Shown here: positions 23 to 34,410 of the stretch, piece after piece
Layout: every line of letters starts with the position of its first letter
How positions within the stretch are numbered: position 1 is the first letter of the stretch
Source of the DNA: Candidatus Micrarchaeota archaeon
GTDB taxonomy: Archaea; Micrarchaeota; Micrarchaeia; Anstonellales; Bilamarchaeaceae
Length of the DNA: 64,000 nt
NCBI GenBank assembly: GCA_043821365.1
Contig: JBDRCX010000006.1
Location: 734,151-798,150, forward strand
Reading direction: 5' to 3'
Translations under genes and position numbers: made by a program
Notes under the pieces: generated by a model
What the model was told of the DNA's origin: nothing
The model's database searches: none
Seen by the model: the letters and a program-made list of their open reading frames with translations, nothing else

Positions 23-45
23 GCAACTTTTTAGTAAAAAGTTGC
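23..45. repeat. Perfect 10-bp inverted repeat immediately 5' of the tRNA
   Basis: GCAACTTTTT-AGT-AAAAAGTTGC. Confidence 0.9.
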
Positions 46-19587: not shown

Positions 19588-19620
19588 TTATAAATGTGAT
19601 CTATCATTACTTTCAACTAC

Positions 19621-19848
19621 GCCCCTGTAGCGCAGTCCGCTTTTTAGGAAAAAGCTTGGCAAAAACTGGTTGTTGTTTTTGTAGTTTTCTAATAAAAAGC
19701 AGGTGTTAAGGTAGCGCGCGTCCTTGGTATCGCACCTTTTTTCAAAAAGGTGCGCCAAAAACTTTTGTAAATAGTGACCCAGTTTTGGGCCGCCTTTTAC
19801 CAAAAGGCGGAGAGGACGAGGCCGCGAGTTCAATTCTCGCCGGGGGCT
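19621..19848 (+). tRNA. tRNA-Thr(GGU) with a D-loop intron (19636-19708) and 83 nt of intron sequence at 37/38 (19730-19812)
   Basis: Exons 19621-19635, 19709-19729, 19813-19848 give a 72-nt cloverleaf: GCCCCTG/CGGGGGC, GCGC/GCGC, CGTCC-TTGGTAA-GGACG, GCGAG-TTCAATT-CTCGC, U73; TATA TTATAAAT about 26 nt upstream. Confidence 0.9.
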
Positions 19849-30857: not shown

Positions 30858-31057
30858 CGCCCCAACCGCGATTTGAACGCGGACTACAACCTTTCCTCCC
30901 CGAACCTTTTACAATCTTGAGGAAAACTATATTAAAAGGTCCGATCCAAAACAAATTATCAAAAACAATCATCGTTTTACGACAATAGGTTCCAGTTCCA
31001 TTCTTCCTAAAAACGGGGTCGCAGGGTCGTGTCATATCCAGGTTAGACTATTGGAGC
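30858..31057 (-). tRNA. tRNA-Arg(GCG) with a 126-nt intron at 37/38 (30893-31018)
   Basis: GCTCCAA/TTGGGGC, D-loop with A20, CGACC-CTGCGAA-GGTTG, CCGCG-TTCAAAT-CGCGG, G73; 74 nt mature. Confidence 0.9.
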
Positions 31058-34192: not shown

Positions 34193-34326
34193 CTTGAAAG
34201 CGGACGCTTTCAAGACAGTAAAAATTATTTTCTAATTTTTACACGCAGGGGTGGCAGAGTTGTTTTGAACAAGTTCAAAGCCTCCGCCACATTCATTCGG
34301 TTATTCGACTGAAATAACTTTCATAA
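34193..34326. repeat. Hairpin cluster containing a 15-nt copy of the tRNA-Leu 5' end
   Basis: CTTGAAAGCG-GA-CGCTTTCAAG (34193-34214), GTAAAAATT..AATTTTTAC (34218-34242), GCAGGGGTGGCAGAG (34245-34259) identical to 34327-34341. Confidence 0.9.
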
Positions 34327-34410
34327 GCAGGGGTGGCAGAGCGGTCAAATGCGCCAGCTTGAGGGGCTGGTGGGTTAGTCCCTTCGAGTGTTCGAATCAC
34401 TTCCCCTGCA
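34327..34410 (+). tRNA. tRNA-Leu(GAG), intronless
   Basis: GCAGGGG/CCCCTGC, CCAGC-TTGAGGG-GCTGG, long variable arm, GAGTG-TTCGAAT-CACTT, A73. Confidence 0.96.

Follow-up and report, generated by a model that had tools for sequence, protein, structure and literature searches.

Abutting hairpin-module intron units in a Micrarchaeota tRNA-Thr(GGU) gene may be removed in two ordered splicing steps

The window analysed here, a stretch of 64,000 nucleotides from the genome of a Candidatus Micrarchaeota archaeon, contains a 228-nt tRNA-Thr(GGU) gene on the plus strand (19621-19848) in which three exons are separated by two inserts. In-silico splicing and comparison with orthologues assign tRNA positions 1-15 to exon 1 (19621-19635), positions 16-37 to exon 2 (19709-19729, with the anticodon GGU at 19726-19728) and positions 38-73 to exon 3 (19813-19848). 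The first insert, recognised by folding and by homologous introns, is a 73-nt intron of the HBh' type located in the D-loop between positions 15 and 16 (19636-19708). The second, an 83-nt insert at position 37/38 (19730-19812), is composed of two units placed end to end: a 31-nt module or intron, 2a (19730-19760), defined by folding and sequence matches, and a 52-nt reverse-type unit, 2b (19761-19812), defined by folding and stand-alone counterparts. Inspection of the upstream sequence revealed TTATAAAT at 19588-19595 (+), approximately 26-33 nt 5' of the gene, as a possible archaeal TATA box. The host is a groundwater archaeon whose 1.20 Mb genome (36% GC, 87% complete) is assembled in six contigs.

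Once 19636-19708 and 19730-19812 are deleted in silico, ARAGORN recognises the remaining 72 nt as tRNA-Thr(ggt) with a regular cloverleaf, comprising an acceptor stem of 7 bp (including one G.U pair), a D stem of 4 bp, an anticodon stem of 5 bp, a variable loop of 5 nt and a T stem of 5 bp. This result confirms the reading of the initial annotation, which had proposed a 228-nt gene with a 72-nt mature tRNA. The splice boundaries are unambiguous, because the mature sequence fixes them, and they are confirmed by orthologues lacking one or both inserts, which have exactly the predicted D-loop and anticodon loop. The exons are 100% identical to those of a congener (G024) and similar in 25 other congeners. 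Removal of the inserts thus restores both a cloverleaf and conserved exons, as is characteristic of BHB tRNA introns, and strict or relaxed BHB motifs can be recognised at the junctions of intron 1, of 2a and, after removal of 2a, of 2b. We read both inserts as protein-spliced BHB-type introns.

In its unspliced form the gene was missed by ARAGORN and Rfam, which found only a tRNA-Leu in the window. Rfam reported just 18 tRNAs in the whole genome, and ARAGORN, run across all loci, returned just 26 intron-less tRNAs, too few for a template library; we therefore wrote our own acceptor/T-arm finder and parser for intron-bearing tRNA genes. This finder identified approximately 35 tRNA genes in the genome, many of them 130-290 nt long, and the gene described here is the sole Thr(GGU) gene that it found in this 87% complete assembly. 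Since standard finders miss this gene and most other tRNA genes of the organism, the tRNA sets of such MAGs are badly under-called. An apparent tRNA-Arg(GCG) with an anticodon-loop insert of about 125 nt, at 30858-31057 (-) of the window, was missed by ARAGORN, Rfam and our parser and was read by eye from its acceptor stem and T-arm. In addition, the first 15 or so bases of tRNA-Leu(GAG) (34327-34410, +) recur 82 nt upstream, at 34245-34261, a repeat that could be an insertion remnant or an integration site.

Intron 1 presents a 4-bp central helix H, GCGC/GUGU, made of two G-C and two G.U pairs and flanked by the 3-nt bulges AG|U and UA|A. On the plus strand it contains a forward hairpin module (19637-19659), a CAAAAAC/GUUUUUG hairpin (19660-19681), the distal strand of a long-range inner helix (19694-19702), which pairs at eight of nine positions, and the H strand GUGU (19703-19706). 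The long-range helix has a probability of ~1.0 and H one of 0.73 in the full-precursor ensemble, and the intron folds with a z-score of -2.72 relative to shuffled sequence. The helices and bulges initially annotated for this intron are all found. Homologous introns occupy the same position in five congeners (G024, G033, G029, G062 and G019). With an HBh' architecture, the 3' cut of the modelled intron must be set by its distance from H, and the splicing enzyme evidently applies such a distance-from-H rule within this gene; the rule is also the one assumed for the 3' cut of 2a.

The sequence of 2a, which folds with a z-score of -4.67 relative to shuffled sequence, begins with a U, followed by a 10-bp T-run/A-run hairpin (hairpin 1, 19731-19754), the tetranucleotide CCAA (19755-19758) and two terminal adenines. 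CCAA pairs with UUGG at 19724-19727, corresponding to exon residues U32-G35, in a central helix of four Watson-Crick pairs (4/4) flanked by the 3-nt bulges UA|U and AA|A; the outer helix of this motif measures merely 2-3 bp. In 2b, a 5' segment ACUUUUG precedes GUUUUGGG (19782-19789), a 9-bp hairpin (hairpin 3, 19790-19810) and a terminal AG. Its inner helix pairs CUUUUG (19762-19767) with CAAAAG (19801-19806) over 6 bp, and its central helix, UUGG/GCGG, is paired at three of four positions. The registers of the two units coincide at 19760|19761: this point lies two bases past CCAA, and A19761 is exactly the first base that places C19762 opposite position n-6 of 2b. Every helix proposed in the initial annotation was recovered in its place.

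Read as a single intron, the 83-nt insert makes a poor BHB motif, with an H of 3/4 pairs, two of them G.U, that overlaps hairpin 3, and with no dedicated H strand 3' of the last hairpin. Folding of the insert yielded no pairing from intron nucleotide 2 to nucleotide n-6. The earlier contention that, as one intron, the 83 nt have no inner helix accordingly holds in the canonical sense, but three local hairpins do exist, and both the whole insert (z -3.95) and 2b (z -2.93) fold more stably than shuffled sequence. A pairing of CCAAAAAC with GUUUUGG inside the intron was also considered as an organising helix and was rejected as dominant on its probability of 0.02-0.09.

Ensemble calculations, performed for naked RNA at 37 C, reveal how the two units would interact. 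In the full 228-nt precursor, hairpin 1 forms with a probability of ~1.0, the G34G35:CC pairs with 0.87 and U33:A with 0.52. Hairpin 3, which the initial annotation had identified as a 9-bp competitor, forms with a probability of 0.98, the central helix of the whole intron with 0.00 and the inner helix of 2b with 0.01. With intron 1 removed, the conformer containing the 2a motif and both hairpins has an energy of -67.3 kcal/mol (MFE -68.1), whereas the whole-intron BHB conformer, at -60.5 kcal/mol, is approximately 7 kcal/mol costlier. With 2a removed, the 2b helix (C19762-G19767/C19801-G19806) reaches a probability of 0.5 with the whole tRNA body, and C19762:G19806 reaches 0.95 in the context of the anticodon arm; natural stand-alone reverse-type introns (those of G001 and L148 and of tRNA-Lys in this genome) adopt the same fold with probabilities of 0.93-0.99. 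The motif of 2b is thus predicted on thermodynamic grounds to form only after 2a has been removed, and the features put forward at the outset for the two units (for 2a a perfect central helix, two bulges and a 10-bp hairpin, and for 2b a flanking helix gained upon 2a removal and a weaker central helix) are borne out.

Both inserts are assembled from a lineage-specific mobile hairpin module. The module is a hairpin whose base is G+C-rich and whose arms carry a T run (4-7 nt) and an A run on either side of a 2-4-nt loop; CAAAA(A)C follows it. Forward modules sit at the 5' end of introns, and reverse modules, which are true reverse complements including the loop, sit at the 3' end after GUUUU(U)G. 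Stem sequences vary, yet copies from numerous genes and genomes retain the base pairing, the T-run/A-run and CAAAAC. Segments of the two introns have counterparts of 85-97% identity at numerous further sites in this genome and those of congeners, and a scan of one genome per prokaryotic species detected the exact module pattern in 99 DNA stretches; among the 80 matches listed, all but two belong to Micrarchaeota or to unclassified archaeal MAGs, the module-bearing relatives being assigned to Candidatus Micrarchaeota, Micrarchaeia or Bilamarchaeum. We parsed 92 anticodon-loop introns (20-200 nt) from this genome together with the fetched loci: both modules are present in 29, a forward module alone in 21, a reverse module alone in 21 and no module in the remaining 21. 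In 35 of 50 cases intron nucleotide 2 is the starting point of the first hairpin, and in 34 of 50 the last hairpin stops 2 nt short of the 3' splice site, indicating that module hairpins lie where the helices flanking the 3-nt bulges belong.

Sequence matches link each part of the 83-nt insert to introns of non-orthologous tRNA genes, as is typical of transposing intron families. The 2a unit matches the start of a 110-nt tRNA-Pro(UGG) intron (L097) at 29 of 31 nt, 2b matches the 3' half of a tRNA-Arg intron (L070) at 42 of 49 nt, and nearly all of the 83 nt align with a 77-nt tRNA-Glu(UUC) intron (L012) that is a canonical single intron. Given this last homologue, 2a and 2b may have arrived as a unit. 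A regular-expression search located 53 modules in this genome, 23 inside recognised tRNA genes and 30 outside, some of the latter directly flanking tRNA genes. One module lies at 23-45 (+) of the window, just outside a tRNA-Ala(GGC) gene (G000:C6:734056-734170, -) that extends across the first position of the window, and similar modules flank tRNA-His (G000:C6:696731-696755 and 696872-696892). A second repeated hairpin, CCCTATAAAAACG...CGTTTTTATGGG, was observed at G000:C6:642598-642850 (-) and 321370-321590 (-): it lies inside the T-run of a terminal hairpin of the tRNA-Glu(CUC) intron and recurs in another tRNA gene. Modules insert into one another.

Stand-alone counterparts exist for both units. 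In form and length 2a equals a 31-nt minimal BHB intron that stands alone in tRNA-Glu(UUC) of this genome and whose four-base H strand matches its own exon, and a 53-nt intron resembling 2b is present in tRNA-Lys(CUU) of the same genome. Reverse-type introns are also the sole insert at position 37/38 of tRNA-Thr(GGU) in G001 and its metagenome counterpart L147 (47 nt), in G029 (49 nt) and in the metagenome contig L148 (52 nt), in keeping with the suggestion that relatives with only a 2b-like intron be sought. The originally proposed division of the insert at 19760|19761 coincides with a real module boundary. In L148 (2480-2800), the tRNA-Thr(GGU) gene of another species, reverse-type introns are found in the D-loop as well as at position 37/38.

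A search of 40 genomes of the genus recovered several states of the Thr(GGU) 37/38 site: 11 orthologues have no insert, two have only a reverse-type intron (as does the metagenome contig L148), five have only a forward-type intron, two, including the gene described here, have a two-module intron, and three have unrelated or mini introns. Such presence/absence differences at orthologous sites are again typical of transposing introns. The congener G024, with its identical exons, shares a homologous intron 1 but is missing precisely the 83 nt, and on same-sample contigs of other organisms the 83 nt are either cleanly absent or replaced by a forward-only intron. For the flanking gene, synteny is kept in just five genomes, with ~43% protein identity. 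DNA contigs of four metagenomes yielded alleles of other species and no 2a-less allele of this strain, and no RNA run was found to contain this sequence; a pattern scan of the metagenomes detected two loci only, both reverse-only alleles of other species.

The genome encodes the enzymes on which BHB splicing depends. A 393-aa open reading frame (L120), matched by the Pfam family tRNA_int_endo, aligns end to end with the epsilon2 EndA of ARMAN-2 (4FZ2/9W2K; E 3.5e-132), and an RtcB is also encoded (E 1e-141), suggesting by homology that an EndA capable of cutting relaxed motifs and an RNA ligase are both available. The ARMAN-2 enzyme is reported to cleave strict and relaxed motifs in vitro (PMC3239211, PMC12397907), and its structure with BHB RNA is described as explaining this tolerance (PMC12397907). 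The initial annotation had invoked multi-intron tRNAs, relaxed motifs and a broad-specificity EndA from Thermoproteales; these phenomena are established (PMC3239211, PMC4090602, PMC4033280), but the frame does not apply, as the host is a member of the Micrarchaeota (DPANN) and its EndA is of the three-unit epsilon type rather than (alpha-beta)2. A second protein with a tRNA-intron-endonuclease catalytic domain, of 163 aa, is encoded at G000:C6:480404-480895 (+; L121:1291-1782). The RtcB matches fall in two pieces within a single open frame of 910 aa (G000:C6:673872-676544, +; L146), which implies that the gene has a large in-frame insertion, possibly an intein.

Taken together, these data lead us to propose, with a probability of about 0.5, that this is a working tRNA-Thr(GGU) gene in which 2a and 2b are two introns removed sequentially. 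The 83-nt insert reads best as a complete reverse-type intron, 2b, whose 5' junction is occupied exactly by a forward module, 2a. Pairing of the CCAA of 2a with U32-G35 of the anticodon loop, beside the 10-bp hairpin, would create a near-canonical helix-bulge-helix motif, which EndA should cut. The epsilon2-type EndA would cleave at 19729|19730 and at 19760|19761, the latter two bases past the central helix, and RtcB would ligate A37 to A19761. The remaining 52 nt would then refold like stand-alone reverse-type introns, and 2b would be excised in a second round, as presumed for the resident introns of relatives. We infer both the cuts and their order from the predicted folds.

The principal alternative, which we regard as nearly as likely as sequential removal and which leads to the same tRNA product, is that the insert is one composite intron excised in one step. 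EndA would then cut only at 19729|19730 and 19812|19813, with hairpins 1 and 3 flanking two 3-nt bulges or with the weak helix UUGG/GCGG forming transiently, and the boundary between 2a and 2b would be a mere module junction without an internal cut. The placement of module hairpins in general is that of flanking helices (35 of 50 at the start and 34 of 50 at the end), and the lowest-energy conformer of this precursor leaves both outer sites in unpaired 3-nt stretches between helices. EndA could cut the outer 3' site directly beside hairpin 3. Against this, H is paired at just 3/4 positions, includes two G.U pairs and overlaps hairpin 3, and the insert has neither an inner helix nor a rod. Furthermore, EndA would face a branch point across from the 3' bulge, a type of substrate that has not been described for this enzyme, the canonical whole-intron conformer carries the energetic cost of ~7 kcal/mol given above, and the 2a motif, which is predicted to form in competition, should be a target for cleavage.

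The behaviour of two-module introns as a class bears directly on this alternative. Such introns are common (29 of 92), and most of the long ones fold into a rod in which the 5' strand of hairpin 1 pairs with the 3' strand of the last hairpin, supplying a canonical inner helix beside a central helix that is matched to the exon and formed with the intron 3' end; on this basis, most two-module introns in relatives are single introns, as is the homologous composite in L012. The 83-nt insert is unable to form this rod because its two hairpin stems mismatch each other, and a fold of that type was ruled out for it. The test set comprised 25 two-module introns, each 60 nt or longer, representing 12 anticodon classes. 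The tetranucleotide that follows hairpin 1 matches exon positions 32-35 at a mean of 1.32 positions compared with 1.26 in a permuted null (P 0.35), whereas bases n-5 to n-2 match the exon at 3.32 compared with 2.81 (P<0.0005, a value overstated by the relatedness of the genes). Since the intron 3' end is matched to the exon and the bases after hairpin 1 are not, the class behaves as single introns, and those members without a match after hairpin 1, such as the introns of tRNA-Asn and tRNA-Thr(CGU) in this genome, must nevertheless be spliced.

The tRNA-Thr(GGU) gene is alone among the 25 in having a 4/4 match after hairpin 1. One perfect match among approximately 50 modules is within chance. 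CCAA moreover belongs to the conserved module tail and is also present in the tRNA-Pro(UGG) module of L097, where it does not fit the exon, so that its fit to UUGG in tRNA-Thr(GGU) may be a coincidence of sequence. The ordered two-step splicing proposed in the initial annotation is favoured by the predicted rise in the probability of the 2b helix from 0.01 to 0.5-0.95, and is weakened by the single-intron behaviour of the two-module class. Sequential and one-step routes may also coexist.

A more specific version of the sequential reading concerns the origin of the insert, and we put it forward tentatively as an unlikely but concrete scenario: 2a would be a complete excised mini-intron that was inserted at the cleaved 5' junction of a resident 2b, generating a BHB 'twintron'. 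This could have happened, for instance, through ligation of a foreign intron into the cut pre-tRNA by RtcB, followed by copying back into DNA. Under such an origin, two splicing rounds at one nucleotide position would be obligatory.

It is also conceivable, at a distinctly lower probability, that the modules have an extra role, such as protein binding, guiding of modification or timing of maturation, which the layout of the insert reflects. This explanation is compatible with the others, and it would account for the conservation of pairing, T-run/A-run and CAAAAC among variable stems across genes and genomes and for the copies outside tRNA introns beside tRNA genes. However, inspection revealed no box C/D, K-turn or antisense element, Rfam returned no match to those in the window, and their rapid gain and loss at orthologous sites suits a selfish element better than a conserved function. 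That the locus is a decaying pseudogene yielding no mature tRNA is very improbable and is rejected on exon conservation: another copy might be missed in a genome that is 87% complete, but the intact exons are shared without a difference with a distant congener, despite divergence of introns and flanks, the cloverleaf of this sole Thr(GGU) gene found is regular, and both junction pairs retain motifs predicted to be splice-competent.

Sequential removal would have a published precedent. In nested introns of some archaea, the last motif forms only after the others have been processed (PMC3728597, citing Sugahara 2008 and Tocchini-Valentini 2009). As described there for Crenarchaeota and Thermoproteales, nested pre-tRNAs resemble the present gene in having several BHB introns per gene and a motif that depends on prior removal, each round consisting of two cuts and one ligation. 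Unlike in that account, the introns here abut at one position (37/38) instead of occupying different positions, the EndA, that of a DPANN host, is of the epsilon2 and not the (alpha-beta)2 type, both units belong to a family of mobile hairpin modules, and the order of removal is a prediction.

Within the same phylum, ARMAN-2 provides an enzymatic parallel (Fujishima 2011, PMC3239211; Hirata 2012, PMC3488258; Miyata 2025, PMC12397907). Its EndA is a full-length homologue, and its reported tRNA introns are many, follow strict as well as relaxed motifs at both canonical and non-canonical sites, and include two introns close together in one loop. The introns tested there are short (13-25 nt), and the available portions of these three papers make no mention of a repeated hairpin module or of two-module or abutting introns.

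Transposition of tRNA introns has been described in Thermoproteales, where intron families are common to different tRNAs (Fujishima 2010, via PMC4090602 and PMC4033280). To the extent covered by those accounts, the likeness lies in near-identical sequences at non-orthologous genes and positions, in rapid gain and loss and in a spread presumed to occur at the DNA level. The Micrarchaeota module differs from those families in belonging to another lineage and in being a palindromic hairpin with a tail that is found in both orientations, stacks into composites and is also present outside introns.

The twintrons of Euglena plastids consist of an intron within an intron, so that their removal is sequential, and they are formed by self-splicing group II and group III introns; in the gene described here, by contrast, BHB introns spliced by proteins are involved, and the inserted unit sits directly at the junction. 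What is new is that two complete units abut at one nucleotide, that the host is a DPANN archaeon and that both units are built from modules.

These observations address the question of how archaeal tRNA introns originate and spread, for which this gene can serve as a compact model: at one site, two units of a mobile intron family lie end to end, relatives provide natural alleles with neither unit or with either kind alone, and the host EndA has a solved homologue of known broad specificity. If two-step splicing does take place, ordered nested splicing would come to include introns that abut at one position, and DPANN archaea as hosts, and the chance fit of a mobile module to an anticodon loop would be able to create a new splice site. 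If, in addition, 2a was acquired as an excised intron at the junction of 2b, the gene would show how archaeal tRNA introns spread and stack.
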